Below the pieces are notes generated by a model. The model had not been told where the DNA came from. It did not search any database and saw nothing but the letters and a program-made list of their open reading frames with translations. Below are positions 18,437-56,092 of a stretch of 59,344 nucleotides of DNA, piece by piece; position 1 is the first letter of the stretch, and every line of letters starts with the position of its first letter. The DNA comes from an uncultured Clostridia bacterium. Its GTDB lineage: Bacteria; Bacillota; Clostridia; Christensenellales; CAG-917. The stretch covers positions 1 through 59,344 of the forward strand of contig CAUSLO010000003.1 in the NCBI GenBank assembly GCA_963532875.1. The letters run 5' to 3'. The position numbers and the translations under genes are program-made.

Positions 18437-19396
18437 TTAGTTATTTCCCAATGTTCCTGCTACGAAATACTGCTTATGGAAAAACTTTGTCATTTCTTCT
18501 TGAGTTAATTTAGAACCGTATTTAGTCTTTACTTCCTCCAGAAAAACGTATATTGCATCTTGATGATTATTTAAAAACCATTTGATGTGATTGCCAATAT
18601 ATTCTGATCTGATTTTGGAATCATTCAAATCGTTGGGCACACGTTTCATTCTTTCATCAATACTATCAAATCCCACGAACTCTTGTGTAAGTCGTTCTTT
18701 TGCCATTTCTACATATTTAGGATTTATTTCAATTCCGATAGCATTTCTATTTGTCTGCTGACAAACTCTTAGAAGAGTACCACTCCCTAAAAATGGATCT
18801 AAAATAGTATCACCTTCATTTGAAGATGCTAACACCATTCTTTCATAAAGACCTTCTGGTTTTTGCGTAGGGTGGTTTTGTCGATTTTTATTGCAATAGT
18901 GCATATGTGAAAATTCCCATACGTTTCCTGGATTGGCACCTCGCATATTATTTACGGATCTATAATATTTTTGTGGAACACGAATACTGTCAAGATTGAA
19001 AGTAAATTTCTTCGGATTTTTGGTAAACATAAGTATGTCATCGTGTCTTGGTGAAAACCCCTTCGTTTTTCCAATGCCTTGAGTATAAAACCAAGAAATC
19101 CAAGAATTGAAATGCATTCCTAATTCTTTTTCTAATATATCATATATGTATGAAATATACCTCATACCCATAAATACATATATAGTGCCATCATCTTTTA
19201 AGACTCTTTTTGCTTCTGTCAGCCACTTCCTAGAAAAATCAAGATATTCATCAAACTCCAACTTATCCTGATTATTACCATAGTCCTTATTTAGATTATA
19301 AGGAGGGTCGGTAACGATTAAATTAATACTTTTATCCGGTATCCTTTGCAGTTCTATCAAAGAATCCCCACAGATTATATTTAGTCTATTATCCAT
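18437..19396 (-). CDS. Type II DNA methyltransferase, beta-class (N4-C or N6-A)
   Basis: Motif IV 'VTDPPYN' near the N-terminus comes before motif I 'LDPFLGSGT'. This beta-group order marks the N-4/N-6 methylase family. About 85 extra aa at the C-terminus have unknown function. It overlaps the REase gene by 16 nt. Confidence 0.85.
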   Translation of the reverse strand: MDNRLNIICGDSLIELQRIPDKSINLIVTDPPYNLNKDYGNNQDKLEFDEYLDFSRKWLTEAKRVLKDDGTIYVFMGMRYISYIYDILEKELGMHFNSWISWFYTQGIGKTKGFSPRHDDILMFTKNPKKFTFNLDSIRVPQKYYRSVNNMRGANPGNVWEFSHMHYCNKNRQNHPTQKPEGLYERMVLASSNEGDTILDPFLGSGTLLRVCQQTNRNAIGIEINPKYVEMAKERLTQEFVGFDSIDERMKRVPNDLNDSKIRSEYIGNHIKWFLNNHQDAIYVFLEEVKTKYGSKLTQEEMTKFFHKQYFVAGTLGNN

Positions 19397-20145
19397 TTGT
19401 TTTTCTTTGCCTCCCTTATAAAATCGTCAAGAGATTTCATTGAACTGTGTAGATATTTACTATCTAATAATTGGCACATCTCCCAAGTAGTCCGATACTG
19501 ATATGCAACATCATGAATGTCTCTAATTTGGATTTGCCCAGTCCCCAATGCGGGATTGTAGTTAATATCTGCATCACTTATAAATTTTAAGTCATACGCA
19601 TTGTAGTCAATAACCTCCATAATATTGTCTACTAATCCGCTTTTATCATTCGTTTCAGAATAAACCTTATGTTTTATAGAAAGAATTATAAACATAAAGT
19701 CTGGATCGACAACATATGCGGTTCTAATACGAGAAAACGAAGTAATGTTCGGTCTTTTGCCACTGTCGGGGATATCATTCGCCGTTGCTTTTACATCAAT
19801 ATTTCCAGTCAGTACTTGATTACCCTTTTTGAATTGCAAAATTATATCTGACATGCCTAATCTTTCTTGTGCTGCAACGTTTACTAAATTATATGTATTT
19901 TTTAAATTATCTTTAATATCTAAAAAAACTTCTCCAGCCCATGCTTCAATAATTGGACCAGCAATTTTATTTATATTTTCTAGCGGAAGTCCAAATTTTA
20001 GATTAGTGTTAATAATAATTTTATTATCGCCAGTTGTTTTTTTTGTATCCAAGATAGCAGTAATTTGCTTTATTACAAATGCTGAGTCCTCACGATAACT
20101 CTTACTTTCTATAGGGATTTTGAATTGTAAATCTCCATACTTCAT
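19381..20145 (-). CDS. Putative type II restriction endonuclease (PD-(D/E)xK)
   Basis: It sits between the C-protein and methyltransferase genes. The candidate catalytic pattern is 'EAWAGE ... GMSDIIL ... NIDVKAT' (E...D...DxK). The start was taken at 20145 (MKYGDLQF), giving an ATGA overlap with the C-protein stop; the ORF track extends to 20199. Confidence 0.6.
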   Translation of the reverse strand: MKYGDLQFKIPIESKSYREDSAFVIKQITAILDTKKTTGDNKIIINTNLKFGLPLENINKIAGPIIEAWAGEVFLDIKDNLKNTYNLVNVAAQERLGMSDIILQFKKGNQVLTGNIDVKATANDIPDSGKRPNITSFSRIRTAYVVDPDFMFIILSIKHKVYSETNDKSGLVDNIMEVIDYNAYDLKFISDADINYNPALGTGQIQIRDIHDVAYQYRTTWEMCQLLDSKYLHSSMKSLDDFIREAKKNKWIID

Positions 20146-20363
20146 TTTTCTACCTCTTTGCTCAATGTCTTGAAATCGACTATGTCGTCGATGCCACATT
20201 TAAGAAATAATGCGATTTTTGCAAGCGTTTCCATTGAAACAGGACTGTCTTTCCCCATTTTTGCGAGCATATTGGTGGATATTCCTGTCTGCAGTCTCAT
20301 TTCTGTTTTCGTAATTTTTTTATCTATTAGCAACTTCCATAACTTATTGTAATTGTAGTTCAC
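20142..20363 (-). CDS. Controller (C) protein, XRE-family HTH
   Basis: The 73-aa HTH_3-like protein ('ITKTEMRLQTGISTNMLAKMGKD') lies immediately upstream of, and coupled to, the REase gene. It uses a GTG start 6 nt after AGGAGG. Confidence 0.75.
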   Translation of the reverse strand: MNYNYNKLWKLLIDKKITKTEMRLQTGISTNMLAKMGKDSPVSMETLAKIALFLKCGIDDIVDFKTLSKEVEK

Positions 20364-20614: not shown

Positions 20615-20655
20615 TATCTAATCCGATTAAATTAGTACGCCTTAACATTAAATTG
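20615..20655 (+). repeat. Left copy of a direct repeat bracketing the LRR/MoxR/VWA operon
   Basis: TATCTAATCCGATTAAATTAGTAcgcctTAACATTAAATTG. It shares an exact 16-mer plus 6-nt and 9-nt blocks with 35022-35058 and contains the small hairpin CTAAT-n8-ATTAG. Confidence 0.5.
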
Positions 20656-20801: not shown

Positions 20802-23800
20802 ATGAAAAAATACAACAGAATAATATCAATCACTTTTATCTTTGTAATGACCGCACTACTTTTCACTGCATGCGTTAAAAAGAGCGTAATTAGTGGGAAG
20901 TGGTATGCTGTAGACAGTGATAAGTTTTATAGATTAGAGATTGATAAAAATAATAAATTCCAATTTTCAATTGATGAAAATAAGATGGAAGGAAAGTATA
21001 AGATTAAAAGTAAGACAATTAAGTTTTCTCTCTCGAATAAAAGTTTTGATGGTACAGTAAAGGACAACAATATAAACATTTCTTATGAAGGTAAGAAGTT
21101 AGTCTTTTCAAAAGTAAAACAGGTTAATGTTTTCTTTCATACTAAAGGTGGGAATGCTATACAAACAAAAAAAGTAGAAGTAGGAACAAAACTTAATATT
21201 ACCGAAAAACCTTCGAGAAAAGGGTATATCTTTAAAGGATGGTATGTAGATCAACAGTATAAAAAACCATTTGATCCAGCAAAAAGGATTTTAAGTGATT
21301 TAACAGTGTATGCAAAATGGTCAAAAGTTGTAAATCCAGGTACTAGCGAAGAAGGGAGTGAGGAAACAAGTACCAACACTATTACTTATGTAGCTGATGA
21401 ATTTGCAACGACTACAGCAAGAACACAAAGTGTAAAAGATGGGGAAGGATACAAATTAGAAGTACCAACAATGACTGGCGGTTATGAGTTCCTCGGATGG
21501 TATACTGAGAATCATCAAACTCAATTGACAGATAATAAAGGTGTAAGTTTAAACGCTTGGGATCCTCAAAGTGGTGATATAAATGCAGTTCCACATTACA
21601 AGTCAACCTTAAATTTAAAATATGAAAAGATTTCAGATGGAAAGTATAGAGTATATCAAGACGATATGTTTTCAAGTAACGAAGTAGAAATTCCAAAGTA
21701 CTATGATGGGGGAATCATCTCAGCAATTGGTAGATTCTCAAATGCTCCTAACCTTGAAAAGATTACAATTGGAGAGGCAGTAGAGGAAATTGAGGAGAAT
21801 CCAGCAGGCGATTCAAATGTATTCAAAGAATACAGAGTAAGTGAGGAAAATAAAAAGTACACATCAAAAGATGGAGTTCTATATTCAAAAGATTTATTAA
21901 CATTATATTCATACCCAATAGCTAAAGAAGGCGAGACATACGTTGTTAGTGCAAGTACAACAAAGATCGCAAATCGTGCTTTTAAAGATAGATTCATAGG
22001 CGAACAGATTAAAGCAGAAACGGTCGGCAAACATTTAAATAAAGTTGAAATGACACAAAATATCTCAGAGATTGGTGAGGAGGCATTTGCAAATAGAGTT
22101 GGATTAACTAATGTATCATTCACAAGTGTAGCATCACCAGCAGAAATGAAAATTGGAGCAAGGGCATTCACATTCACAAATCTAGAAGAATATCCAATCC
22201 CAAGTAACACTGTTTCGATTGGCACAGGAGCGTTTGAGTCAGATTTAAAAATGAGTAATGTAGTAAATGCAAAACAAAAGGAATTGATATTGCCAGAGGG
22301 ACTAAAAGAAATAGGCGAAAAGGCATTTCTATACAATATAGAATTAGAAAAAGTAACGCTATCGAAAACAGTAGAACATATAGGAGCATATGCATTTTCA
22401 AGTTGTAAGCAAATGACAAATTTTGATTCTAATGCGAATGAGCAAATAGATAAAATCCCAGCGGGAATGTTATCAAAAAATATAGATTTAACAGATTTTA
22501 GTTTCCCTAAAAATATAATGGAAATTGGTGATGAGGCTTTCTCCGCAACACAAATTGAGGAATTAGCGTTACCAGAATCTGTTACTAAAATAGGAGATTC
22601 GGCATTTGCTAGAATGAAGTCATTAACGAAGGTAAATATTCCAGACGCAGTTACTGAGTTAGGACGTGGAGTATTTGAAGGGACAGAGAGGTTAGAATTT
22701 GCTGGAATTTTAGTTGGCAACAGTAGTCAGGTCCTATTGAAAGAAAATGGTGCTCTATATAATCGTGATAAGACAGAATTAATTAAATTTGATAATGCAT
22801 CAACTGTAACAGAATTCACAATGCCAGATACAATTACTTCAATTGATAAAGGAGCATTTAAGGGTAACACAAAACTTAAAAAAATAATCTTATCTAAGAA
22901 TTTAAAAAGGATAAGTGAGAATGCATTCCACAGTAGTACGATAGAAGAAATTAAAATTCCAGCAAGTGTTGAAGAAATAGGACCAAAAGCATTCTATAAT
23001 ACAAAACAACTTAAAAAGCTTGAATTTGAAGACGGATGTGGAATTAAGGCTTTACCAACAGGAGTTTTTGACACATCGAGCATTGAAGAACTTACTTTGC
23101 CAGAGGGTCTAGAGTACGCTGTTGAAAAAGACATCTTTAGAAACATGGCAAAATTGAAAATATTAAATATTCCATCATCACTTCGTGATATAGAAATTGG
23201 AGCAATGCTCACTAGAACAAAAATACAAACTATCAATGTTAATCCTAACAACGAACATTTAATGGTAGAGGATGGAATTCTATATACAAAAGATAAGAAA
23301 ACATTGATATATGCAACACAATCATTTAATAAGTCAACTTTAGATATTAGTGGTGTTGTGGAAATAAGAAAATATGCATTCTATTCTAATCTGAAGTTGA
23401 AGGAAGTTACAGGTACATCAAGCCTACAATCAATCAGAGAAGGAGCATTCCAAAAATCAAAAATAGAAACTATTGATTTGTCTTCAGTATTAGAAATAGA
23501 AAAATCAGCATTTAAACAATCAGGCATTAAAGATGCAAATTTAGAAAATATCGAAACATTAGGCGAACAAGTATTTAGCCGATGTGCAAACCTTGTAACA
23601 GTAAGATTGAGTAATAAAATTAATAACATTGGACGTGCAACATTTGAACACACAAAAATTAAGGATTTAGTAATTCCTGATAGTATTGAGAGAATTGGGG
23701 AACAAGCATTCGATGGAGCGGGAGTTGAAACGCTGGTCGTAGGTAATGGAATAAAGAGTACTAAAGTTATTTCAGACGCATTCAAAACATGTGCAACATT

Positions 23801-24131
23801 AAAGAGCATTGCTTTGGGTAGTGGAATTACAGAATTAGAAGAAAAGGCGTTTTCAGAACTCAAATCACTAGAGGAAATTAAACTTGGAGATGCAGTTACA
23901 GAGATACATGCTACGGCATTTGATAAACTCGCATCTTTGAAAAAAGTACAAGTAGAGACACAGGTTCAACTAAATAGGATTGCCGAAATACCTATGATGA
24001 ACGCAGATCAGTCGCTAAAGAAGGCAACTATTGTAGCAAAGAGCACACTAGATTTTAATGATGTAGGAATGTCCTACAACAAGAAAGAAGATAAGGGAGA
24101 CTATACAGAACTTAGTGAATATGCATTCTAA
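20802..24131 (+). CDS. Surface lipoprotein with two Listeria-Bacteroides repeats and a long BspA-type leucine-rich-repeat region
   Basis: Signal peptide ending 'LLFTAC'. Repeats 'KGYIFKGWYVDQQYKKPF...LTVYAKW' and 'GYEFLGWYTENH'. About 800 aa then carry the reiterated '..I..IG..AF..C..L..V.LP..V..I' LRR_5-like unit. SD GCGAGG upstream. Confidence 0.8.
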   Translation: MKKYNRIISITFIFVMTALLFTACVKKSVISGKWYAVDSDKFYRLEIDKNNKFQFSIDENKMEGKYKIKSKTIKFSLSNKSFDGTVKDNNINISYEGKKLVFSKVKQVNVFFHTKGGNAIQTKKVEVGTKLNITEKPSRKGYIFKGWYVDQQYKKPFDPAKRILSDLTVYAKWSKVVNPGTSEEGSEETSTNTITYVADEFATTTARTQSVKDGEGYKLEVPTMTGGYEFLGWYTENHQTQLTDNKGVSLNAWDPQSGDINAVPHYKSTLNLKYEKISDGKYRVYQDDMFSSNEVEIPKYYDGGIISAIGRFSNAPNLEKITIGEAVEEIEENPAGDSNVFKEYRVSEENKKYTSKDGVLYSKDLLTLYSYPIAKEGETYVVSASTTKIANRAFKDRFIGEQIKAETVGKHLNKVEMTQNISEIGEEAFANRVGLTNVSFTSVASPAEMKIGARAFTFTNLEEYPIPSNTVSIGTGAFESDLKMSNVVNAKQKELILPEGLKEIGEKAFLYNIELEKVTLSKTVEHIGAYAFSSCKQMTNFDSNANEQIDKIPAGMLSKNIDLTDFSFPKNIMEIGDEAFSATQIEELALPESVTKIGDSAFARMKSLTKVNIPDAVTELGRGVFEGTERLEFAGILVGNSSQVLLKENGALYNRDKTELIKFDNASTVTEFTMPDTITSIDKGAFKGNTKLKKIILSKNLKRISENAFHSSTIEEIKIPASVEEIGPKAFYNTKQLKKLEFEDGCGIKALPTGVFDTSSIEELTLPEGLEYAVEKDIFRNMAKLKILNIPSSLRDIEIGAMLTRTKIQTINVNPNNEHLMVEDGILYTKDKKTLIYATQSFNKSTLDISGVVEIRKYAFYSNLKLKEVTGTSSLQSIREGAFQKSKIETIDLSSVLEIEKSAFKQSGIKDANLENIETLGEQVFSRCANLVTVRLSNKINNIGRATFEHTKIKDLVIPDSIERIGEQAFDGAGVETLVVGNGIKSTKVISDAFKTCATLKSIALGSGITELEEKAFSELKSLEEIKLGDAVTEIHATAFDKLASLKKVQVETQVQLNRIAEIPMMNADQSLKKATIVAKSTLDFNDVGMSYNKKEDKGDYTELSEYAF

Positions 24132-24978
24132 AGTTATTAAAAAGTTTGCAACAGCATTACTAATTTCGTGTTTATGTTTATGGTTAGTAGGATGTGGAAA
24201 GCATCCTATTAACCTATATAAATATAAGTTAAATGTTCAAACTTTAGACTTAAATCTAAATGAAGAATCACGATTAGAGATGCTTGAAAATGATATTGTA
24301 CTTGCTCAAGATGTTGAATGGAATTCTAACAATACCAATGTGATTGAAGTCGAAAATGGGCTGATTAGAGCCGTAGGGGTAGGCACTTCATTGGTAACTG
24401 CTACATATAGGGGGAATGTTGTGGGGATTAATGTCAATGTTAAAGATAAGAAGATAGGGCTCTCACAAAAGAAAATTACGATGATAAGTGGCGAAACTTC
24501 AAGTCTAGAATTTATTGACGAAGATATTATAGATTCGTCTGAAATACAATGGAGCACTGGCGATAATGATGTGGCGACTGTAAATAATGGAACGATTAAT
24601 GCACATAAAGTGGGGAGAACGGTTGTAGTCGCTAGGTATAAAGATACGGATTATCTTTGTGAGGTTACAGTTTTAGACAAGTTTGAACTTGCAGGAACAT
24701 TTAGAAGTGAAGTGTATATTTCGCAAATGTCGCAAACTTTTATTTTTGAAATGATAATACAGAAAGATGGGTCGTATGTGTACAAACGTTTAGCAAACCC
24801 ATCATTCCCAGAGGAAGAAATTAATAAAGGTAAAGCGAGAAGAGAAAAAGAATTCGTTATTTTTGAAAACAACAAATCAGAAATGAAATTTACAATATCC
24901 GATAAAGACACGTTAGTGTCAGTAGGAAGTATTCCTACGAATAGGATAGATATCCCAATGACGTTTAAGAGAAAATGA
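24115..24978 (+). CDS. Lipoprotein with two Big_2 (bacterial Ig-like) domains
   Basis: Lipobox 'LWLVGCG'. 'VEWNSNNTNVIEVENGLIRAVGVGTSLVTATY' and 'IQWSTGDNDVATVNNGTINAHKVGRTVVVARY' match the Big_2 pattern. It overlaps the upstream gene by 17 nt. Confidence 0.7.
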   Translation: MNMHSKVIKKFATALLISCLCLWLVGCGKHPINLYKYKLNVQTLDLNLNEESRLEMLENDIVLAQDVEWNSNNTNVIEVENGLIRAVGVGTSLVTATYRGNVVGINVNVKDKKIGLSQKKITMISGETSSLEFIDEDIIDSSEIQWSTGDNDVATVNNGTINAHKVGRTVVVARYKDTDYLCEVTVLDKFELAGTFRSEVYISQMSQTFIFEMIIQKDGSYVYKRLANPSFPEEEINKGKARREKEFVIFENNKSEMKFTISDKDTLVSVGSIPTNRIDIPMTFKRK

Positions 24979-25976
24979 AGAAGACGAAGATCACAGAATT
25001 TAAAAAATATGAAAAACGAATCTATATTGAGCATGCTTTTCAAGCATTATTTTTCAATGCGATTATCGCAGCATTATTAATGATATTAGTTTCGTTAGTA
25101 GTTTACTTTGTAGACTCTAAACTATTTTATTTGCCAATAGTTATCTTTTTTGCAACATTAACAATTGGAACGACTATAACGATGATTGTAAGGAGACTAT
25201 CAAATCAAGAAATAGCACGCAGAATAGATGCTATCGGGTTGAATCAACAAGCAACTACAATGTTGGAATTTATCAATGACAATTCAGATATTGCCAAAAT
25301 GCAAAGAGAGCGAGTGAAGAAACTTCTCTTAGAAAGAAGCCATAAGGAAATAAAAATCACTCTCAACAGAAAGTATTGGATAACGGCAATAGTATTAAGC
25401 GTTATTGCAGTCATTTCAGTTTCACTTGTTGGCGTATCAAAATTCAACGGAATTCCTCAATATCACGACATACAAAAAAGAAGAATGACAAAAGTAGTTG
25501 AGCGGAAAGTAATCTATGAAGCAGAGGACGGCGGAAGAATACTTGGGAAGTTGGAACAAGAGATCAAAGATATAGGCAAACCAGTATATGCTATCCCAAA
25601 CAAAGGATATTTTTTTATCGGCTGGTCTGATGGAGAAACGAATCCTTATAGGGTAGATAATTCTGTAAAAGGAACGATTAAATTAAAAGCAATGTTTCGC
25701 AAGTTCAAAGTTGACGAGACAGATATAGAAGTGCGAGACAAAAAGATTCCACAACCCGAATATGAAGAACAAAATTTTGAAGGAGATAAGCCATCTCATA
25801 TTGGCGGAGGCTCTGGTAAATATGAAGAGATAAATCAAATCATTGATGGAAAAACATATTATCGTGATGTGTTAGCAAAATACAGCAAACAAGAACTGAG
25901 AGCGTTGGCAAATGATAAAAGTTTGCCAGTCGAAATACGCAAATTAATAGAGGAGTATTTCAAAATCATAAAATAG
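24975..25976 (+). CDS. Three-TM membrane protein with an extracytoplasmic Listeria-Bacteroides repeat
   Basis: TMs at 'FFNAIIAALLMILVSLVVYFV', 'LPIVIFFATLTIGTTITMIV' and 'WITAIVLSVIAVISVSLVGV', then 'KGYFFIGWSDGETNPYR...IKLKAMF'. ATGA overlap upstream. Confidence 0.65.
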   Translation: MKKTKITEFKKYEKRIYIEHAFQALFFNAIIAALLMILVSLVVYFVDSKLFYLPIVIFFATLTIGTTITMIVRRLSNQEIARRIDAIGLNQQATTMLEFINDNSDIAKMQRERVKKLLLERSHKEIKITLNRKYWITAIVLSVIAVISVSLVGVSKFNGIPQYHDIQKRRMTKVVERKVIYEAEDGGRILGKLEQEIKDIGKPVYAIPNKGYFFIGWSDGETNPYRVDNSVKGTIKLKAMFRKFKVDETDIEVRDKKIPQPEYEEQNFEGDKPSHIGGGSGKYEEINQIIDGKTYYRDVLAKYSKQELRALANDKSLPVEIRKLIEEYFKIIK

Positions 25977-25987
25977 GAGAATATATA

Positions 25988-26971
25988 ATGACAGAAAAAG
26001 AAGTAGAAAAGTTTAGTGAACTAGTTAAAAAAATTCTAGAAGAAATTAAGAAGGATGTTATTGGACAAGAGGAAACAGTTAGGAATTGTATTATCAGTAT
26101 GATTGCTGGAGGCAATGTTCTTCTAGAAGGAATTCCAGGAGTAGGCAAGACAAGATTGGTCAGAACATTAGGAAGGGTATTCGCCTTACCATTTTCAAGA
26201 ATACAATTTACACCAGATTTGATGCCTGCAGACGTTACAGGGACAAATATGTTAATCAAAGAAAAAGATGGGAATTCAAAATTTAAATTCCAAGAAGGAC
26301 CTGTATTCTCAAATATTGTTTTGGCAGATGAAATAAATAGAGCAACACCTAAGACGCAATCTGCGTTACTGGAGGCAATGCAAGAGCATACGGTTACAGT
26401 TATGGGAGAATCAAAAAAACTCCCAGAACCATTTTTTGTCCTAGCGACTCAAAACCCTTTAGAACAAGATGGGACATATCCGTTACCAGAAGCACAGATG
26501 GATAGATTTATGTTCAAAATAATTGTCGAGAACCCTAACCTTACAGAATTAAAAGCAATTGTAAAGTTAACTCAAAAAACTATGGAAGAAGTATCTGAAA
26601 ATGTTTGTAACAAAGAGCAATTGCTAGAAATGCGAAAGATAGCAAACCAGATTCTTGTTGGCGACGATGTGCTTGAATATGGATTGAGATTATGTTTATG
26701 TACGCATCCTAATACTGAGTGTTCATTACCTTCAAGTAAAAAATATATACAAGTTGGGGCATCGCCACGTGCCTCACAAGCATTAATCAGTGCAGCAAAA
26801 GTTTTGGCTTTGCTAAGCGGAAGACTAAATGTTTCATATGAAGACATTAATAATTTAATCGTTCCAATTTTAAGGCATAGGATTAAATTAAATTTTGAGG
26901 CAGTTGCCGATGGCATAAGTGCAGACGAAGTAATCAAAATGCTGGTTGAGGAAATTAAGAAGAAGAAATGA
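25988..26971 (+). CDS. MoxR-family AAA+ ATPase (AAA_3)
   Basis: Walker A 'EGIPGVGKTRL', 'RIQFTPDLMPADVTG', Walker B 'LADEINRATPKTQSALLEAMQE', 'VLATQNPLEQDGTYPLPEAQMDRF'. 327 aa. Confidence 0.9.
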   Translation: MTEKEVEKFSELVKKILEEIKKDVIGQEETVRNCIISMIAGGNVLLEGIPGVGKTRLVRTLGRVFALPFSRIQFTPDLMPADVTGTNMLIKEKDGNSKFKFQEGPVFSNIVLADEINRATPKTQSALLEAMQEHTVTVMGESKKLPEPFFVLATQNPLEQDGTYPLPEAQMDRFMFKIIVENPNLTELKAIVKLTQKTMEEVSENVCNKEQLLEMRKIANQILVGDDVLEYGLRLCLCTHPNTECSLPSSKKYIQVGASPRASQALISAAKVLALLSGRLNVSYEDINNLIVPILRHRIKLNFEAVADGISADEVIKMLVEEIKKKK

Positions 26972-27861
26972 ATAAATTTATAAATTCAGCATTCTTCAAT
27001 AAACTAGAAACGCAAGCCATATTGCTCAAGAAGGAACTTGCTGGATTTTTTGGTGGAAAGAACTTAACGAAGAAATATGGACAAACCGTCGAGTTTGCAG
27101 ATTTCAGAGAATATCAATTGGGAGACGATATACGCCGAATAGATTGGAATCTATATTCAAGATTTGAGAAATATTTAATTAAACAATACATAGATGAAAG
27201 GCAGATGAATGTAGACGTATATTTGGATTGCTCAACATCAATGCATAAGTGCGACAAAGCAAAAAGCGACTTTTGTTTAGGCATAGTTGCTGGACTTGGT
27301 TTCCTTGCGATTAAAAATACAGACAGATTTTCAGTAAAACTGATTAAAGGGAAACGAGTCGAAACATTGTTCCCATATTGCGTAGGTAAAACTAATTTTT
27401 TTCTTAATATTGCAAAACTTGATGATGTTAGATTTGAAGAAGAATCATCAATGTCAAATGCGATCCTACAAACAGACCAAAAGGTTAGTGATGGCTTGGC
27501 AATAGTAATATCAGATTTTCTAACAGATGACGACTGGAAGAAAGGTATTAATTATCTATTGCATAAGAAGAAACAAGTATTATTAGTTCAAGTACTTTCA
27601 AAAGAAGAAGTTTCACCATCATATCTAGGCAGATACAACCTTGTTGATTGTGAAAGTCAAGGAGCGGATGATAGTAAAAATTTCAAACTAAATATTGAGC
27701 ACTCAAACTTAAAGGCATATGACAAGGCGTTAGAAACTATTAAGTCAAATATTAAACAATATGCGAGCAGCAGAGGTGTGGGTTATATTTTAATGTATAG
27801 TAGCGAGAATCTAGAAAAACAATTAATTACGTTAATGTTAAGAGGTGGGCTACTTAAATGA
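26968..27861 (+). CDS. DUF58 protein (VWA-like MoxR partner)
   Basis: 'EFADFREYQLGDDIRRIDWNLYSR' is the DUF58 hallmark, followed by 'YLDCSTSM' (DxSxS-like). ATGA overlap with the MoxR gene. Confidence 0.85.
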   Translation: MNKFINSAFFNKLETQAILLKKELAGFFGGKNLTKKYGQTVEFADFREYQLGDDIRRIDWNLYSRFEKYLIKQYIDERQMNVDVYLDCSTSMHKCDKAKSDFCLGIVAGLGFLAIKNTDRFSVKLIKGKRVETLFPYCVGKTNFFLNIAKLDDVRFEEESSMSNAILQTDQKVSDGLAIVISDFLTDDDWKKGINYLLHKKKQVLLVQVLSKEEVSPSYLGRYNLVDCESQGADDSKNFKLNIEHSNLKAYDKALETIKSNIKQYASSRGVGYILMYSSENLEKQLITLMLRGGLLK

Positions 27862-29711
27862 AATTTATAAACCCTATATACCTAATACTATTTATAAGTT
27901 TAATACCGTTATTTCTAATATATTTTTTAAAGCCAACCTTTAAGAATAAGGAAGTATCTTCAACATATATTTGGAAAGAATCACTTAAGTATGGAAAGAC
28001 AAAGAAGGGAGTTCAACTAAATAATCTAATAGTGTTAATAATACAAATTTTAATTATTGTAACTATAACTATGATGGCAGCAACTCCAAAAATGTTCTCA
28101 AAATTAGAAATTCAAAAAGAAAGAGTCATGATTGTTGACAACAACGCATATATGATGGCTAAAGTAGACGATGAAACAAGGTTTGAAAGAGCAATAAGTG
28201 AAGTAAAAAGTCGTGCACAATCAGCAATTGATAATAAATATAAAGTTACTGTAGCAGTATTAAACGGACGGAATAGAATACCTATTTCAATGGAAAGCGA
28301 CATTAATAAAATCAATCAAAAGTTGGATGAATTAAACTGTACATTTGAAAATACATCACCGAGCGAAGGAATATTTGAAATAAAACAAAAGTTCAATAAA
28401 ACAACGAAAAAGGAAGTATTTTATTTCAGTTCTGGAGAACATCAAAACTTAGGGGATATTAATTATGTTGATGTGAGTAGAGAAGAAGAATTTAATATCA
28501 GCATTTTAAATTTTAGAAGGAAATTAGTTAATAACTATTGGCGGTTTGAAATTGATTTATTGTCATCAGGAACAAGTAAACAAGTTCAGTTAAATCTCAA
28601 AGTGATAGGAGCAAATTCTGAAAAGAAACAGATTAGCCGAAATGTGCAAACATCATTAGTAGAAGGCGAACAGACAACTGTAACGGTTGATGACTTAGGA
28701 GTTTATGAATTTGATGAGGTATCGGTTGATATAAAAACTATAGATGGGTCAAAGGACGCTATTGATTTTGACAATAGGGCTGTGATTTCGCATGGTCGAC
28801 CAGATTCTATAAAAGTACAATATTATAGCTCTAAACCAAACAATTTCATGCAAGCGTCGCTGAGGACACTCAGAAATATGTATTCAAATACTTTTGATAT
28901 ACAAATAAGTGAACCATCACAAATAGGCGATGTAAAGACCAGCGGTTTTGATTATTACATCTTTGAACATTATGTCCCTAGTGAATTGCCTAATGACGGC
29001 AAATGTTTCCTCTTGAACCCCAATGAGATTACAGCAAGGAATGCGTCTTTACTTGGTGTTAAATTAGGTGCGGAACGATTAGGAAAATATTCAATAGATT
29101 CCGGGGATGTGCATGCAATAACAGACAAATTAAATTTTTCAAAAATATCAATTAGTAAATATAGAGTTTTGACGACAACAGATGGAGTAATACCGTTAGC
29201 ATATTCTAACAACGAATGTGTTATGGCATTAAGTAAAAATAAAAATGCAGTAATTGCAACAATTAATTTGCATAATTCAGATTTGGCAGTTCTAATGGAA
29301 TTTCCATTATTGATGAATAATATTTTTAAGTTTTTTATTCCACGTACGATAGATGGTGACAAGGAATATTTTGTTGGCGATAAAATCAAACTGAATTCTA
29401 GGTATAAAGAACTAGAAGTTGAGCATAACGGAATAAAACAGAAAATAACAAGTGGTGAAGAATTAACTTTTGAAAATCCAGGGATGTATACGATTACAGA
29501 AAAAGATGGGACTGCAGGAAATGTATATAAGATAATTCCTAAACTCAGTAGTGAGAGTCTTGAGATGAAAAGGTCAGTAGTTTTGCAAAGCGGAGTGGGG
29601 AAAGTAGAAGAACCTAAGAAACAAGAGAACGACATATTTATAATTCTTGCTAGTGTGATAGTAGGACTCATATTCATAGAACGGATTTTGACGATAAGGA
29701 AGAGGGGCTGA
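27858..29711 (+). CDS. BatA-N-type (N-terminal double-TM) membrane protein with a large extracytoplasmic domain and C-terminal TM anchor
   Basis: 'MKFINPIYLILFISLIPLFLIYFLK' plus a second TM ('LIVLIIQILIIVTITMMAA'). About 500 aa are non-membrane. C-terminal TM is 'IFIILASVIVGLIFIERIL'. ATGA overlap upstream. Confidence 0.7.
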   Translation: MKFINPIYLILFISLIPLFLIYFLKPTFKNKEVSSTYIWKESLKYGKTKKGVQLNNLIVLIIQILIIVTITMMAATPKMFSKLEIQKERVMIVDNNAYMMAKVDDETRFERAISEVKSRAQSAIDNKYKVTVAVLNGRNRIPISMESDINKINQKLDELNCTFENTSPSEGIFEIKQKFNKTTKKEVFYFSSGEHQNLGDINYVDVSREEEFNISILNFRRKLVNNYWRFEIDLLSSGTSKQVQLNLKVIGANSEKKQISRNVQTSLVEGEQTTVTVDDLGVYEFDEVSVDIKTIDGSKDAIDFDNRAVISHGRPDSIKVQYYSSKPNNFMQASLRTLRNMYSNTFDIQISEPSQIGDVKTSGFDYYIFEHYVPSELPNDGKCFLLNPNEITARNASLLGVKLGAERLGKYSIDSGDVHAITDKLNFSKISISKYRVLTTTDGVIPLAYSNNECVMALSKNKNAVIATINLHNSDLAVLMEFPLLMNNIFKFFIPRTIDGDKEYFVGDKIKLNSRYKELEVEHNGIKQKITSGEELTFENPGMYTITEKDGTAGNVYKIIPKLSSESLEMKRSVVLQSGVGKVEEPKKQENDIFIILASVIVGLIFIERILTIRKRG

Positions 29712-32383
29712 TGACAAAAGTTATATTTAAAAATCCATGGTTTCTATTTGTAATCATTCCTCTTATTGCTATTTCGTTACTTGCATTTTTCTTAGTTAAT
29801 CGGCGCTTTAGATATAAACGTGAAAAAGTCGCCACATTAGTGTTGGGATTAATCATAGCCGTTAATGCGTCTCTTTTATTAGCAGGCATGACTGTTAAAA
29901 AGGTGGAAAAGAATACAAATAATGAAGTGCTTTTTTTGGTTGATGCATCGGCAAGCATGAAACACAAGAAAGAAGAAGTAAAACAGAGAATAAAAAACAT
30001 AATGGAAAACACTTCAAGCAAAGTGAAGTTTGGACTTTCCGTGTTTGGTAGCGATTATCGGAATTTATCGAAAATTGCTTCAGATAGAGACGGTATATTA
30101 AATGCTCTAGATGGTGATTATGGATTAAATGATAATACGACTAACATAGAAAAGGCATTTCAAGAAAGCGTGAAAGAGTTTAAAAACTTAACGACTAGCA
30201 AAGTCGTAATGTTGACGGACGGATTAGAGACAGATGGATCAATGTACTCAGTTATGTCTAGTTATCTAGCAAAGGGAATGAAATTGGATGTTTCAATAAT
30301 TAACACCAACTATTTTGGAAACGAAACAGCAATTACTGGAGTAATAGAACCGAGCAACTTGGTGAAGATAAATGAAGTTAATAGATATCAAGTAAAAGTA
30401 AAGGCAAGGTCAAAAGGTATTGCCACATTAAAAGTTTATGACAACGATATACTAAAGTATAAGAAAAACGTGGTATCGGTACTTGGTGAGAATTTATATG
30501 ATGTTGATTTAACATTTACCAACAAGGGGTTGCATCGTATACGTTGTGAACTAGAAACAACGGAGGATAATGTTGAACAGAATAACACATATTTTGTATG
30601 CACGAATATTCAAGACGTAAACAAATTATTAATTGTTAATAGAAATGATGACAATAAAGAACTCAACTCAATATTTGCTGGATACGCTGATGTTAAGACA
30701 TTGCAGATTAAAAATTTACCAAATGATATCGACTCACTTAGAGAATTTGATCAGATTATTTTAAACAATATTGCGAACTCGGATATGCCTAGCGACTTAA
30801 CAAAGAATATAGCAACGTATGTAAGGAAGTATGGGGGAGGTCTTTTGACACTAGGCGGAACAAAACAAGTAGGAGGCACAGATTCCCCTCATACATATGT
30901 TAAGCAAGACATGCAAGGTAGTTTGTATCAATCTTTGTTGCCAGTGGAATGCGAAGAATATAAACCGCCAATTGCAGTAACAATCGTAATTGATATATCT
31001 GGTAGCATGTTAAATCAGGATCCTAATACAGGAAGAAAATTAATTGATATAGCAAAAGAGCAAGCAATAGCAGCGATTAAAGCATTAGACGAAAGAGACT
31101 ATGTTGGAGTTGTAACATTTGGATCAAAATCAACAGTAGTTATAGATCCAACGCCATTAACAAAACGTCAGAGAGTTATAGACGCAGTACAAGGAATAGA
31201 GGGGAAATTAGAAAGTTCAATTTATTCTAATGGTGTTGAAAGAGCAGGGTTGACACTAAGAAGCGTAACTCACGTAAGTAAAAAACACATTTTATTTATT
31301 AGCGATGGGGCACCAGGGAGTGGAGATACGACATATATTGCTAAGACAGCAGATAATAAAGCAAATGGAATTTCTACGTCTACAATTGGGTTTGGTAGCA
31401 ATGTACCACCGCTCAGAAATATGGCAATAGCAGGTGGTGGTAAATATTACTACAGCAGAAAACCTGGGGAACTGTCATTGAAAATTAAAGAAGACTTGCA
31501 AAGCGAATTTATCAGAGAATATGATGCAACGAAAAGTTTTAAGCCAGAGACGCCATCAGTACATGAAGTTACAAAAGATGTGAACGAGTCTGACTTACCA
31601 GAGATGAACAACTTCTTTGGAACGAGGTTAAAATCAGAAGCAACATCTATTCTATCGGGAGAATATGGGCAACCGATATTGGCGACACATCAAGTTGGTA
31701 AGGGAAAGGTAACTTCGCTTTTAACAAGTTTTGCTAAACTTGAAGGGACCGATTGGTTGAACTCAGAAGTAGGGAAAAACCTTTTTAAAAGTTTAATTGC
31801 TTATGGATTCCCTAATAAAACGATTAAGAAAAACAATGTTGATGTAACTATAAAACAAGACAATTACACATTAGGGGTTAATGTTTTTTCAAAGGTGAAA
31901 GAAGGAACAGTTGAATATAAGGTATATAGATTTAAAAATAGCGAATGGGAAGAATTTGAAACTCTTACAAGCGATTTTATAGGCACTGAGAAGTTCATTA
32001 CTAATATATTAGAGAAAGGAATATATAAAATTGATGTAAGCGTTACTAATGCAAATGGCAAAACTGAAAAGTCAACTGTCTATCAAGCAATATCATATTC
32101 AAACGAGTACGCATTTAGAGACAATCCAGAAGAAGAGGAAAACGTTAAAAAGATATCAGAATTTGAAAATTCAGTGTTGAAAGAAGGCGGAAGAGTTCTT
32201 GATGAAAAAATGAATATTTCAGACAATTTGCAACTAAATACTGTGAAGTATATAGACCTTAGGGCTGTTTTAGGTATTATTCTTGTAATTTTATTTTTAA
32301 TTGACCTAACTTTACGTAAATTCAAGTGGAAACTGATATCTGAAATAATAAGGGAGAAAAAGGATGCAAAGAGTAAGAATTAA
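29711..32383 (+). CDS. Membrane protein with BatA-N-like double TM, two VWA domains, a GATase1-like (DUF1355-like) insert and a C-terminal TM
   Basis: 'FKNPWFLFVIIPLIAISLLAFFL'. MIDAS 1 'LVDASASM' (GAT at 29942); MIDAS 2 'VIDISGSM'. Between them lies 'LLIVNRN...FDQIILNNIA...YVRKYGGGLLTLGG'. C-terminal TM is 'VLGIILVILFLIDLTL'. TGATG overlap upstream. Confidence 0.8.
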   Translation: MTKVIFKNPWFLFVIIPLIAISLLAFFLVNRRFRYKREKVATLVLGLIIAVNASLLLAGMTVKKVEKNTNNEVLFLVDASASMKHKKEEVKQRIKNIMENTSSKVKFGLSVFGSDYRNLSKIASDRDGILNALDGDYGLNDNTTNIEKAFQESVKEFKNLTTSKVVMLTDGLETDGSMYSVMSSYLAKGMKLDVSIINTNYFGNETAITGVIEPSNLVKINEVNRYQVKVKARSKGIATLKVYDNDILKYKKNVVSVLGENLYDVDLTFTNKGLHRIRCELETTEDNVEQNNTYFVCTNIQDVNKLLIVNRNDDNKELNSIFAGYADVKTLQIKNLPNDIDSLREFDQIILNNIANSDMPSDLTKNIATYVRKYGGGLLTLGGTKQVGGTDSPHTYVKQDMQGSLYQSLLPVECEEYKPPIAVTIVIDISGSMLNQDPNTGRKLIDIAKEQAIAAIKALDERDYVGVVTFGSKSTVVIDPTPLTKRQRVIDAVQGIEGKLESSIYSNGVERAGLTLRSVTHVSKKHILFISDGAPGSGDTTYIAKTADNKANGISTSTIGFGSNVPPLRNMAIAGGGKYYYSRKPGELSLKIKEDLQSEFIREYDATKSFKPETPSVHEVTKDVNESDLPEMNNFFGTRLKSEATSILSGEYGQPILATHQVGKGKVTSLLTSFAKLEGTDWLNSEVGKNLFKSLIAYGFPNKTIKKNNVDVTIKQDNYTLGVNVFSKVKEGTVEYKVYRFKNSEWEEFETLTSDFIGTEKFITNILEKGIYKIDVSVTNANGKTEKSTVYQAISYSNEYAFRDNPEEEENVKKISEFENSVLKEGGRVLDEKMNISDNLQLNTVKYIDLRAVLGIILVILFLIDLTLRKFKWKLISEIIREKKDAKSKN

Positions 32384-34958
32384 GAGTTTAGGCATAGTCG
32401 TTATTATCCTATTAACGTTAGTGTTCGTAGGTTGTACGAATAGGAAGCATCCATTAAGTACGCCAATAGAGTTGGAGATAAATGCACAACAGCAAAGGAT
32501 ATATTGGAAACAAGTAGAAGGTGCAACAGGATATATAGTTGATACAGGAAGCAAAAAATATAAGGTAAGAGTGAATTCATTTGATATGAGTTTACTAAGT
32601 GATGGGGACTATGATTTTAGAGTTAAGGCAATATCAAGAACATTCAAGGAATCATCATATTCAAATACTTTAAGAGTTACTATTTCTAAATCATCACTCT
32701 TAAAATTCATCAATACTAATTCTGTTAAAGAATATCAGTTAGTTGGAATCGGAAGGAACACAGATAAGATATTTAATATACCAAGCGAACATAATGGAAT
32801 TCCAATCACGTCTATTGGCGATAATGCATTTGAAAACAACCAGAGGATTAAGGAAGTTACAGTTGGCGAGAACATTAAGAAAATTGGAATGGCAGCTTTT
32901 TGTAGTGCTAGTAACTTGACCAAGGTAACGTGTAATGAAAAATTGGATTCAATAGGAGAATCTGCATTTGAAGATTGTAAGAGTTTAAAAGAAGTGTATA
33001 TTAGTTCTTCTGTAAGTGAAATATCTAAAAAAGCGTTTAAAGGATGTACTTCGCTACAGTCAGTCAATTTACCAAACGGTCTAAGCGAAATTGCCGAAAG
33101 CGTATTTGAAAATTCTGGCATAGATGAGATACGTGTCCCAAACTCAGTTAATGTAATAAGAGAATATGCATTTGCAAGAACAGATAAACTTAAAAATTTA
33201 GAACTTGGGGAAAATGTTCAAAAGATTTCAGATTACTCATTTTATGAGACAGGTGAATTGAGAGAATTTATTGCTAATACAAAACTTGAAGAAATAGGGA
33301 TGTCAGCATTTGAAAAATCAAAGTCTCTAAGTAAGCTTGTATTGAACAATTCACTAAAAAATATAAGGCAGAATGCCTTTAAAGAATGTGCTAATTTGTT
33401 AGAAGTAAACACCCCAGAAAGTATTGAGCAAATTGAAAAAGATGCTTTTAAAGAGACGGCTATACTAAATAATCAAAGCGGTCTTGCATATGTTGATAAA
33501 TGGGTAATAGGGACAACTAATAGCGACATCACTGAAGTATTGCCAAAAGAAGAAACATTAGGGTTGTCGGACTACGCATTTTTTGACAATAAAAAAATAA
33601 AGAAGTTCGTTACTCCTAGCACATTAAAATATTTAGGATCATCATGTTTTGAAGAATGTAGTGAACTTAATAATGCAAGCATTACTAGGGCAATTAGAAT
33701 TGGCGATAGAGCGTTTAAAAATTGTGTAGCACTAAATGTCGGAACTCTGCCTAGCGAATTAGAAGGGATTGGAGAGGACGCATTTCTAAATACTTTGAAT
33801 TATAAAAATAGTGTATCAACGATAACGGTTGGGAATTGGTTGGTGGGGCATAAATTAAAAACAATCGCAAATTTAGTTGTTGACAATAGCACGGTAGGGA
33901 TAGCAGATTTTGCATTTAAAAATAGAGATAATATAAGAAAAGTAACATTTGGGAATAGTCTCAAATACATAGGAAGAGGAGTATTCTTTGCAAATCAAAA
34001 ATTGAAGGAAGTTACCATTCCTGATAGCGTAGTAGAAGTCGGAGAATATGCCTTTGCACAAATGGCAGAACTTATTAAAGTAAAACTGCCAAACAACATG
34101 ACAGAAATTAAAAATTCAGTATTCTACGAGTCAGCCAAACTAACAGAAGTTGATTTTGGGAACAACCTAAAAAAGATAGGGAACTATGCTTTCTACAGAA
34201 CGTCTATAGAAAAATTAGATTTACCAACGTCAGTAACATCAATTGGGAAGGCAGCATTCTATGAAAATAAGAGATTAACAGAAGCAAACATTGAGGGAGA
34301 TTTGGAATATATTGGTGATTACGCCTTTTATGCAAATACAAATCTTGAAAGAGTTAAGTTTGGGAAAAAACTAAAGAAGATAGGAAATTATAGTTTTTAT
34401 ATGGCACATTTGCTCAAAAATCTTAAATTAGAAGAAGGAGTTGAAGAGATAGGCGACTATGCATTTGCGGAAGCGAGAAATTTACAAACTGTTGTCTTGC
34501 CAACTACAATGAAATCATTAGGTATAAGATCCTTTGAAAAAGCAACAAGTTTGGACAAAATAGATTTGGGTGGGACATCAAGAATAGGAGACTATGCTTT
34601 TGCGTCATGCACACAATTAAAAAGCGTACTGATAACGAAGAAGCAGAAAAAGTTAGGAAAACACTTATTTGCAGATGCTGAGCCAACTATATATATGGAG
34701 AGAGGAGTTGATGAAAAGCAATTTGATGTTGCTTGGAATTCGGGCAATTCGGTTGTGATTTCTGGCATTGAATCAAATACAATTGAAATACAAGAAGGAA
34801 CGATAAGAAATTACAATCAGTATAAGACAATTGTTCCATTGCAAATGCCAAATAAAAAACTAGTGGGATACGTTAATTCCACAACTGGAGACCGCATAGA
34901 ACCTAAAGAAATTGCCAATGTTAAAATGGGCACTGTGATAGAGTTAATTTGGGAATAA
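32364..34958 (+). CDS. Surface lipoprotein with an Fn3-like N-domain and BspA-type leucine-rich repeats
   Basis: Lipobox 'LVFVGCT'. 'IYWKQVEGATGYIV...DYDFRVKAIS' is Fn3-like, followed by more than 20 LRR_5-like units ('I..IG..AF..C..L'). It overlaps the upstream gene by 20 nt. Confidence 0.8.
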   Translation: MQRVRIKSLGIVVIILLTLVFVGCTNRKHPLSTPIELEINAQQQRIYWKQVEGATGYIVDTGSKKYKVRVNSFDMSLLSDGDYDFRVKAISRTFKESSYSNTLRVTISKSSLLKFINTNSVKEYQLVGIGRNTDKIFNIPSEHNGIPITSIGDNAFENNQRIKEVTVGENIKKIGMAAFCSASNLTKVTCNEKLDSIGESAFEDCKSLKEVYISSSVSEISKKAFKGCTSLQSVNLPNGLSEIAESVFENSGIDEIRVPNSVNVIREYAFARTDKLKNLELGENVQKISDYSFYETGELREFIANTKLEEIGMSAFEKSKSLSKLVLNNSLKNIRQNAFKECANLLEVNTPESIEQIEKDAFKETAILNNQSGLAYVDKWVIGTTNSDITEVLPKEETLGLSDYAFFDNKKIKKFVTPSTLKYLGSSCFEECSELNNASITRAIRIGDRAFKNCVALNVGTLPSELEGIGEDAFLNTLNYKNSVSTITVGNWLVGHKLKTIANLVVDNSTVGIADFAFKNRDNIRKVTFGNSLKYIGRGVFFANQKLKEVTIPDSVVEVGEYAFAQMAELIKVKLPNNMTEIKNSVFYESAKLTEVDFGNNLKKIGNYAFYRTSIEKLDLPTSVTSIGKAAFYENKRLTEANIEGDLEYIGDYAFYANTNLERVKFGKKLKKIGNYSFYMAHLLKNLKLEEGVEEIGDYAFAEARNLQTVVLPTTMKSLGIRSFEKATSLDKIDLGGTSRIGDYAFASCTQLKSVLITKKQKKLGKHLFADAEPTIYMERGVDEKQFDVAWNSGNSVVISGIESNTIEIQEGTIRNYNQYKTIVPLQMPNKKLVGYVNSTTGDRIEPKEIANVKMGTVIELIWE

Positions 34959-35021: not shown

Positions 35022-35058
35022 TATCTAATCCGATTAATTTAGTATAACATTAATTATT
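35022..35058 (+). repeat. Right copy of the direct repeat bracketing the LRR/MoxR/VWA operon
   Basis: TATCTAATCCGATTAATTTAGTATAACATTAATTATT. Relative to 20615-20655 it has one mismatch and a 5-nt gap across the first ~36 aligned positions. Confidence 0.5.
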
Positions 35059-51944: not shown

Positions 51945-51980
51945 ATTGGTTGGAGTTTAAATGCGGAGTAAGGAGGAACT

Positions 51981-55811: not shown

Positions 55812-56092
55812 ATTAACGCCAAAACTAAACGGCTTAGAATGTCTGATTTAATGGTTGATATTTAACGTGCATCGCTTAAAAAGTTTTAAAACATGTCAGC
55901 AAAAAATGAAAGAATCCAAAATTTTATCTGTTGAATAGAGATATTGTTTCAACAACTTTTACTCACTAAAAACTGGAAGCACAACAAAGTGATTTCCATG
56001 GCAATTAATGAGAATAATTTTGTTTGACAAATAAGTAAAGTTTTATTAACCTTACTTATATAGTTAAAGTTAATTAACTAAATGGAGGTAAT

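Follow-up and report, generated by a model that had tools for sequence, protein, structure and literature searches.

The DNA studied here, called the window throughout, is a 59,344-nt stretch of contig CAUSLO010000003.1 from an uncultured Clostridia bacterium (GenBank assembly GCA_963532875.1), and its feature of interest is a block of eight forward-strand genes at 20802–34958. The block joins a Bat-like module, built from a MoxR-type AAA+ ATPase, a DUF58 protein and membrane proteins with von Willebrand factor A (VWA) domains, to lipoproteins with leucine-rich repeats (LRRs) and Ig-like domains. Its open reading frames (ORFs), all on the plus strand, are gene 1 (20802–24131, 1109 aa), gene 2 (24115–24978, 287 aa, GTG start), gene 3 (24975–25976, 333 aa), gene 4 (25988–26971, 327 aa), gene 5 (26968–27861, 297 aa), gene 6 (27858–29711, 617 aa), gene 7 (29711–32383, 890 aa), and gene 8 (32364–34958, 864 aa). 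From gene 1 to gene 8, neighbors are joined by a 17-nt overlap, ATGA, an 11-nt gap, ATGA, ATGA, TGATG (a 1-nt overlap), and a 20-nt overlap. These ORFs and junctions, put forward in the original prediction, were all reproduced exactly. An alternative start for gene 2, an ATG two codons downstream (24121), keeps the overlap with gene 1.

The non-coding flanks were also given correctly: 252 nt separate gene 8 from holA, which begins at 35211, and 438 nt precede gene 1 if the 73-aa helix-turn-helix (HTH) ORF at 20142–20363 on the minus strand is counted as a gene. Each of the eight genes has a purine-rich, Shine-Dalgarno-like stretch at its start, and a consensus scan of the eight-gene block found no excess of promoter- or terminator-like sites inside it. 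Judged from the overlaps, the eight genes are likely carried on a single transcript.

The central four genes had been read as MoxR AAA+, DUF58, BatA-N, and VWA, and Pfam matches in genes 4–7 agree. Gene 4 encodes a MoxR-type AAA+ ATPase (AAA_3, 1e-61; AAA_lid_2, 1.5e-18) with the Walker A motif GIPGVGKT and the Walker B motif LADE. Gene 5 (DUF58, 5.5e-30) overlaps moxR through ATGA, and the moxR–DUF58 order is kept in related loci. Conservation across 125 homologs marks a VWA-like DxSxS motif (LDCSTSM) and the motif GDDIRRIDWN in its product. Hydropathy finds no transmembrane (TM) segments in the products of genes 4 and 5, and both are predicted to be cytoplasmic.

Gene 6 combines a BatA N-terminal domain (PF07584, 8e-09) with a weak VWA_2 match (3.6e-05). 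Its product begins with a TM hairpin whose cytoplasmic loop is conserved, continues with an exodomain of ~510 aa containing the VWA domain, and ends in a C-terminal TM helix. The TM1–TM2 loop, SSTYVWKLSLKY, is the best-conserved segment (0.83). The metal ion-dependent adhesion site (MIDAS) at residues 90–99 is degenerate, reading IVDNNAYM, in the window and in the related locus L002, while the consensus of 126 homologs is IIDASASM. Gene 7 carries two VWA domains (VWA_2, 3.5e-27; VWA, 6.2e-22) with beta-sandwich and flavodoxin-like regions, preceded by an N-terminal TM hairpin and followed by a C-terminal TM helix and the conserved cytoplasmic tail RKFKWK. Both of its MIDAS motifs are intact, with D78/S80 and D428/S430/S432 invariant in the homolog alignment. 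The TM3/tail segment, LFLIDLTLRKFK, has a conservation of 0.79, the same as the MIDAS-region segment. An AlphaFold2 (AF2) model of gene 7 (pLDDT 84) matches tandem-VWA proteins in Foldseek, and also BatB (3ibs, TMt 0.76), 4jdu, pilus-tip adhesins, and integrin I-domains. In the window, gene 7 also has a sub-threshold DUF7408 match (1.3e-05, Pfam) and no DUF4350 match.

The sequence confirms TM segments in the products of genes 3, 6, and 7, three helices in each. Hydropathy and the positive-inside pattern of lysine and arginine residues predict that gene 3 exposes its C-terminal half, and genes 6 and 7 their large domains, outside the membrane. The extracytoplasmic placement of the VWA domains agrees with the topology of Borrelia BB0173, whose VWA domain is periplasmic by experiment (PMC5700661). 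Between the window and L002, identity is highest for MoxR (92%), followed by DUF58 (84%) and gene 7 (80%); gene 3, gene 6, and the three lipoproteins share 68–77%. Gene 7 excepted, this gradient is what would be expected if cytoplasmic parts are more constrained than surface parts.

Genes 1, 2, and 8 encode the lipoproteins. Gene 1 has LRR_5 repeats (2.5e-103), two Flg_new repeats (9.9e-19), a small N-terminal domain, and the lipobox LFTAC. Gene 2 has a Big_2 domain (7e-06) and, in its translation, the lipobox WLVGC. Gene 8 has ~25 repeats of LRR_5 (7.7e-140) and the lipobox FVGC. Pfam thus recovers AAA_3, DUF58, BatA, VWA, LRR_5, Big_2, and Flg_new across the eight products, as had been proposed, with the Flg_new_2 match of gene 3 falling below the cutoff. 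Gene 8 had been described as an Fn3/LRR lipoprotein; the repeats and lipobox are borne out, while the Fn3 domain is not confirmed. An Fn3-like membrane-proximal domain is suggested by a weak Y_Y_Y match (0.0028) and a motif conserved in orthologs, and the C-terminus appears to be diverged Flg_new-like from the ortholog consensus and a weak precomputed match in the related locus L007. Genes 1 and 8 both pair LRR_5 repeats with an export and anchoring signal, the lipobox, as BspA-type proteins do. In NCBIfam, the LRR proteins are most similar to the adhesin HupY/LrrG, at scores far below the HupY equivalog cutoff, and their PDB relatives are cell-surface LRR proteins and PcpA. Such family annotation suggests that the LRR proteins may adhere to host or microbial ligands.

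To compare loci, two alignment-based scans with one genome per GTDB species gave 388 and 89 relatives, and the best 80 of each were used. The survey set comprises 137 non-redundant loci with a complete gene-7 homolog, chosen by gene-7 similarity. ORFs were called greedily, longest first, and labeled by phmmer with the window proteins, a procedure that fails in some high-GC loci. A separate scan of genome contigs with gene 7 as a single protein returned one irrelevant VWA match in Balneola.

An LRR ORF lies immediately downstream on the same strand in 92/137 loci and upstream only in another 6/137; 38/137 have no LRR ORF, and the downstream side is unreadable at a contig end in 1/137. Counting positions from gene 7 in loci with a gene-7 E < 1e-80, an LRR gene occupies +1 in 90/99 cases (91%) and −5 in 42/54 (78%), versus 8/294 (2.7%) for positions +2 to +10. 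That LRR genes co-occur with the MoxR core above chance, as was anticipated, is therefore strongly supported. They belong with the core rather than beside it by accident, given position-specific synteny in ~100 species-level genomes and a correlated Flg_new_2 domain in gene 3. The cassette recurs even where the double-VWA protein is only 28–34% identical, and its typical order is giant LRR, gene 3, MoxR, DUF58, BatA, double-VWA, an LRR protein of ~930 aa, and a large Big_3/Flg_new protein. The junction of genes 5 and 6 is a 4-nt overlap in 60/60 loci, and the median gaps are 13 nt between genes 6 and 7 and 14 nt between genes 7 and 8. L002 and L003 (80% identity) have the same eight genes with other downstream neighbors. 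Flanking genes differ among loci generally, with the cassette placed among housekeeping genes at differing sites. A cultured gut bacterium, Pumilibacter intestinalis CLA-AA-M10, also carries it (L076).

The lipoproteins differ in how constant they are. The +1 ORFs are gene-8 orthologs (E about 1e-80 to 1e-150), and 71 of these sequences are colinear over their full length and evenly conserved. Their non-repeat landmarks are the Fn3-like N-terminal motif, two 'VY.G.W.VG' elements, WNSSYRPVVWGC, and the Flg_new-like C-terminus. The +1 protein is therefore a true ortholog, and probably a fixed subunit rather than a diversifying adhesin. The gene that follows it belongs to one of two families, X1050 (~1050 aa, with Big_3 domains at its start) or X1700 (~1700 aa, with Flg_new repeats at its start), and this accessory type tracks the gene-7 tree. 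In PDB sequence searches of X1050 and X1700, the Big_3 domain alone was recognized. Gene 1 represents a variable giant-LRR accessory, and in L004 the gene-1-like gene lies downstream instead. Homologs of gene 2 are found only in the closest relatives (L002–L004, L008), with weak matches in L190, L211, and L245, and the Big_2 gene is a lineage-specific accessory. The accessory families are all lipoproteins without C-terminal anchors; 68/72 gene-8 orthologs have a lipobox, as do 25/29 of the X1050 and 16/19 of the X1700 proteins.

A neighbor-joining (NJ) tree of gene 7 has a clade of 100 leaves, 96% of them LRR-positive; of the 37 leaves elsewhere in the tree, 34 are LRR-negative. The tree puts the window and L002 narrowly outside this large clade and their nearest homologs, L004 and L008, within it; the position of the window and L002 is treated as a long-branch or composition artefact, not an independent acquisition. 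The core without LRR genes, followed by varied downstream genes, is found in Lachnospiraceae, Lysinibacillus, Sporosarcina, Polyangiaceae and other Myxococcota, Verrucomicrobia, and Phycisphaerae. A core that occurs without LRR genes among freely varying flanks, which the original prediction named as a sign against the association, is thus seen in distant relatives and not within the clade. The LRR cassette is a clade-specific elaboration of a widespread Bat-like module.

Ig-like or LRR surface genes also lie inside the cassette in Firmicutes beyond the main clade. L173 has LRR_5, Flg_new_2, and MBG_2 domains; L211 has three Big_2 domains in a gene with a 4-nt overlap with gene 7; L245 has a 1735-aa Big_2 protein between moxR and duf58; and L006 and L183 have Flg_new-CotH and Big_3 proteins. 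In four Bacillales loci (L088, L228, L234, L236; Lysinibacillus and Sporosarcina), the core is preceded by a DUF7408 protein of ~800 aa and an ABC_tran plus ABC2_membrane pair, an arrangement that recalls GldA/F-type transporters. Two near-identical cassettes carry the labels 'Prevotella sp.' (L055) and 'Anaeroplasma bactoclasticum' (L067), both from metagenome-assembled genomes (MAGs) of one study (NALB), and at least one of these labels is probably a binning or labeling error.

Gene 3 had been taken for an accessory that flanks a four-gene core, and the survey revises this. The family alignment begins with a lysine-rich cytoplasmic N-terminus and a TM hairpin, followed by a cytoplasmic loop of ~60 aa that is conserved (ARRID..GLEER..TM.E) and by TM3. 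Beyond TM3 lies a variable exodomain, in the window a predicted extracellular Flg_new_2 domain with an acidic linker, and then a helical hairpin that is conserved at the C-terminus. The Flg_new_2 match (8.5e-04) is below the Pfam cutoff, and no Pfam family spanning the whole of gene 3 was found. A gene-3 profile run against 1.84 billion representative proteins matches repeats of giant surface proteins at columns 176–245; Flg_new repeats of giants dominate its 16745 matches, which confirm the type of repeat in the gene-3 exodomain and give no size for the family. A narrow Flg_new_2 hidden Markov model built from gene 3 missed both the gene-8 C-terminus and the Flg_new repeats of gene 1. The AF2 model of gene 3 (pLDDT 76) has no significant PDB match in Foldseek. 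Even in Lachnospiraceae and Bacillales, MoxR-DUF58-BatA-VWA comes with gene 3. In L088, L089, and L006, which have no LRR genes, gene 3 is a neighbor of moxR; in L091, where no MoxR was called, it adjoins DUF58-BatA-VWA2. Its exodomain in these four loci is coiled-coil or low-complexity. The Flg_new_2 domain is present in gene 3 of 61/63 cassettes with LRR genes versus 4/28 without. Gene 3 is a fifth, previously unrecognized core subunit, whose exodomain changes with the partner set.

Some cassettes lack the ATPase. L016, L038, and L210 read LRR–gene 3–gene 6–gene 7–LRR(–X), and neither moxR nor duf58 separates gene 3 from gene 6; L072 also has neither at this place, and its gene-3 slot is called as an opposite-strand ORF. 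The ATPase-less L038 is in the same MAG as a complete cassette, L045, and several MAGs carry two cassettes. L196, L200, L202, and L204 likewise fall among the cassettes without an adjacent moxR/duf58 pair. In a rearranged subtype, where MoxR is not adjacent, a small LRR gene (~500 aa) is followed by gene 3, gene 6, gene 7, and DUF58. The ATPase-less cassettes suggest that the MoxR-DUF58 pair can act in trans. Because these cassettes keep both the membrane trio and the lipoproteins, partner specificity would reside in those two.

Co-regulation without contact, in which a Bat-like envelope-maintenance or stress module shares its promoter with LRR genes, for example during host colonization, is a rather unlikely account of these patterns. 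It draws on the core being present, and presumably functional, without LRR genes in many phyla, and on further LRR/Flg_new giants in the genome of the window (51981–59164). The phenotypes reported for Bat-like operons in the discussion of PMC5700661 and in PMC11834572 concern stress and envelope integrity, not adhesion. Shared regulation leaves unexplained, however, why cassette-specific gene 3/6/7 paralogs travel with each LRR set, why ATPase-less cassettes retain the LRR genes and the membrane trio, why the gene-3 exodomain switches to Flg_new_2 alongside LRR presence, and why one orthologous family holds 91% of +1 positions.

The reading favored here, if tentatively, is that the genes form one conserved operon-like cassette for a cell-surface complex, in which a membrane VWA platform docks cognate LRR/Ig lipoproteins. 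The core is a five-protein Bat-like module, with MoxR and DUF58 predicted in the cytoplasm and genes 3, 6, and 7 in the membrane with their exodomains facing outward. In a large clade of gut Clostridia, this module would have gained dedicated partners, namely gene 8 and a variable set of LRR, Flg_new, Big_2, and Big_3 lipoproteins. The lipoproteins would be exported by the Sec and lipoprotein pathways and held by an N-terminal lipid anchor, so that their membrane-proximal beta-domains and solenoids could dock on the platform of gene 3/6/7 exodomains through MIDAS-mediated and beta-domain contacts. Docking may organize or stabilize an adhesive surface assembly. From the cytoplasm, MoxR and DUF58 would work on the conserved gene-3 loop and, in genes 6 and 7, on the loops and tails next to the membrane, and so assemble or remodel the platform. 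In support, the cytoplasmic loop and tail segments are conserved as much as the MIDAS motifs. A machine that assembles, remodels, or anchors an LRR complex, as suggested in the original prediction, would be compatible with the predicted topology and with the ATPase-less cassettes.

A bolder reading, and a quite improbable one, is an 'inside-out' adhesion machine. Here MoxR and its VWA-fold adaptor DUF58 would act on the gene-3 loop and the integrin-like basic juxtamembrane tails of the VWA proteins to switch the conformation or oligomeric state of the extracellular MIDAS domains, so that ATP controls the display, clustering, or release of LRR lipoprotein adhesins from across the membrane. If true, this would supply a mechanism and a client class for the whole Bat-like family.

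Several points weigh against a docking platform. Gene order, domains, conservation, and correlated gene content are seen directly, while physical contact among the cassette proteins, the role of the ATPase, and the topology are what we infer. Lipoproteins require no dedicated export machine. The surveyed species are related, and their counts therefore are not independent events and overstate them; ORF calling and the NJ tree are crude. The five-gene core is widespread without LRR genes, which means that LRR proteins are not its universal substrate. In both the window and L002, gene 6 has a degenerate MIDAS, as described above. Finally, the LRR and Big_2 genes had been called translationally welded to the core, which is accurate for the window but not for most relatives, where the giant LRR gene usually lies ~210 nt 5′ of gene 3 and could have its own promoter.

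The large accessory proteins, which reach 1000–3500 aa, could alternatively be cargo. MoxR-DUF58 would then energize the membrane proteins to translocate, fold, or release giant surface proteins, a role as export or maturation machine that is doubtful here. Such a machine would resemble the archaeal arCOG01314 (DUF4350) neighborhood, for which a novel secretion or membrane-remodeling complex was predicted from gene context only (Makarova, Galperin, and Koonin 2015, PMC5898192). That neighborhood likewise has MoxR and vWA, together with a membrane-anchored protein that carries an extracellular flavodoxin-like domain, and Ig-like or S-layer proteins nearby; many gene-7 homologs have a flavodoxin-like GATase1_like domain (PF07090) in precomputed annotation. 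However, the cassette has other membrane families with no DUF4350/GldG match, its partners are LRR lipoproteins, it belongs to another domain of life with another envelope, and homology between the two is known for MoxR and VWA alone. Export would also fit the arrangement in Bacillales, where the core has a GldA/F-like ABC transporter and a protein with DUF7408 as neighbors. On the other hand, all accessory proteins have standard lipoprotein signal peptides, for which Sec, Lgt, and Lsp suffice. The cassette has no channel-forming component, as genes 3, 6, and 7 contribute only three TM helices each. The even conservation of gene 8 over its whole length fits a stoichiometric subunit better than a transient cargo.

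Bat (Bacteroides aerotolerance) operons, of the form MoxR-DUF58-BatA-BatB(-BatC/D/E), are among the closest described systems (Bacteroidota; the spirochaetes Borrelia, BB0170–BB0176, and Leptospira; Rhizobium cmdA–D). Shared features are a MoxR AAA_3 protein followed by DUF58, a BatA N-terminal TM hairpin with a MIDAS VWA, a VWA fold that superposes on BatB 3ibs, and a VWA domain outside the cytoplasmic membrane, which was found by experiment for BB0173 (PMC5700661) and is predicted here. Both also encode solenoid-repeat partner proteins within the operon. In contrast to the TPR partners of Bat operons, those of the cassette are LRR_5 lipoproteins with Flg_new, Big_2, or Big_3 domains; Pfam finds no TPR or BatD domain in the eight products, and the LRR lipoproteins fill the partner positions. 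The VWA proteins are also much larger (617 and 890 aa), the second with two VWA domains and a C-terminal TM helix, and the 3-TM gene 3 precedes MoxR. Its host is a member of the Clostridia (Bacillota), presumed to lack an outer membrane. The cassette is well supported as a conserved cassette and as a clade-specific variant of a known, Bat-like kind. No paper that combines MoxR with BspA, LRR_5, or Flg_new was found in literature searches, in line with the earlier statement that no system of this composition has been described.

Other comparisons involve surface proteins. In the PFNA cluster of Bifidobacterium (pkb2-fn3-aaa-atp-duf58-tgm), whose authors suggest that MoxR chaperones a surface protein (PMC8430577), MoxR-DUF58 is likewise fixed with a large adhesin-like surface protein, of FN3 type, in gut Gram-positives. 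A Ser/Thr kinase and a transglutaminase-like membrane protein take the place of BatA/VWA there, and LRR proteins are absent; Pfam finds neither a kinase nor Transglut_core in the window cassette. Among related loci, L063 is the sole one with a Transglut_core protein in the accessory position. The lipoproteins share LRR_5, Flg_new (InlB B-repeat), and Ig-like domains with BspA/InlB/LrrG adhesins and differ in being lipid-anchored. Proteins of the gene-8 type also differ in being orthologous from locus to locus and linked with a VWA module of the membrane, a link that is not known to be described for those adhesins. Integrins and pilus-tip adhesins also combine an extracellular MIDAS VWA, predicted here, with short conserved basic juxtamembrane tails, and gene 7 matches SpaC, PitA, and the alphaM I-domain in Foldseek. 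This likeness is no more than an analogy: the cassette lacks any sortase or pilin context, and homology is confined to the VWA fold.

MoxR-DUF58-BatA/VWA operons are among the most widespread bacterial clusters without a known substrate or mechanism. Their function is still open (PMC5700661; PMC3557215), and two published ideas, oxidative-stress protection and envelope integrity, are both unproven (PMC5700661). The cassette offers a candidate partner class for the Bat-like module, N-terminally lipid-anchored LRR/Ig-like proteins fixed across ~100 species of gut Clostridia, and with it the first plausible partner proteins for this machine. The substrate question becomes testable through this variant, in which ATPase-less cassettes and paralogous cassettes within one genome provide natural dissections. 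The cassette probably marks a major surface structure of abundant, poorly studied gut Clostridia.

Directly upstream of the block, a type II restriction-modification system occupies 18437–20363 on the minus strand. It consists of an N6_N4 DNA methylase (18437–19396), a restriction endonuclease (19381–20199; PADLOC REase_II, 8.5e-118), and the HTH ORF at 20142–20363 mentioned above, which is controller-like. Such genes were not found beside the cassette in the related loci inspected. The neighborhood bears on the idea, also raised originally, that the cassette is a sensor, signaling, or conflict device in which LRR proteins detect a ligand (phage, host molecule, or competitor) and signal through VWA to MoxR. 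LRR domains are classic sensors, and gene 4 matches bpMoxR (PF20030) at 3.2e-14, though AAA_3 far outscores it at 1e-61. The restriction-modification genes, however, are encoded on the other strand and are missing from related loci. The sites that the cassette occupies vary, and its neighbors there are housekeeping genes. PADLOC reports no defense component in the block, only weak AAA+ matches to MoxR (DolB, 1.1e-06; RtcR-type, 5.3e-04), and identity as a defense system was dropped on that account. Pfam finds no effector, kinase, HTH, transcription-factor, or second-messenger domain in the cassette, whose VWA domains have a predicted location outside the cytoplasm. Nor does the cassette encode a beta-propeller; the MoxR-vWA ternary conflict systems of Kaur et al. 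2020 (PMC7159879) combine a dedicated bpMoxR-type ATPase with a cytoplasmic vWA protein and a beta-propeller or effector partner. This weakest of the rivals is very improbable.

The wider surroundings of the block are housekeeping genes, ruvCAB, queA, tgt, holA, and cdaA. The window Tgt is 72–74% identical to that of uncultured Clostridia, such as Candidatus Limadaptatus, and the GC content of the block matches that of the remaining window. Neither Pfam nor the neighboring genes show an integrase or transposase in the block or next to it. A 23-nt direct repeat, TATCTAATCCGATTAA(A/T)TTAGTA, brackets the block at 20615–20637, 165 nt 5′ of the gene-1 start, and at 35022–35044, 64 nt 3′ of the gene-8 stop. 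It contains the palindrome TAATC-C-GATTA and occurs only in these two copies in the window, where none would be expected by chance; it is absent from 250 fetched loci, including the 80% relative L002. The repeat could be a regulator site or the trace of an insertion.

A second apparent surface-protein locus occupies 47512–59164 of the window. There, two giants encoded at 51981–59164, a 1276-aa Flg_new protein and a 1023-aa protein with Flg_new and LRR_5, come after two long ABC_tran ATPases (719 and 758 aa). With giants encoded here as well, proteins of the LRR/Flg_new type are common in this genome. Near the other end of the window, at 1851–5192, a 1113-aa fusion of an ABC ATPase and an FtsX permease (MacB-like) adjoins a tRNA-Ser gene.

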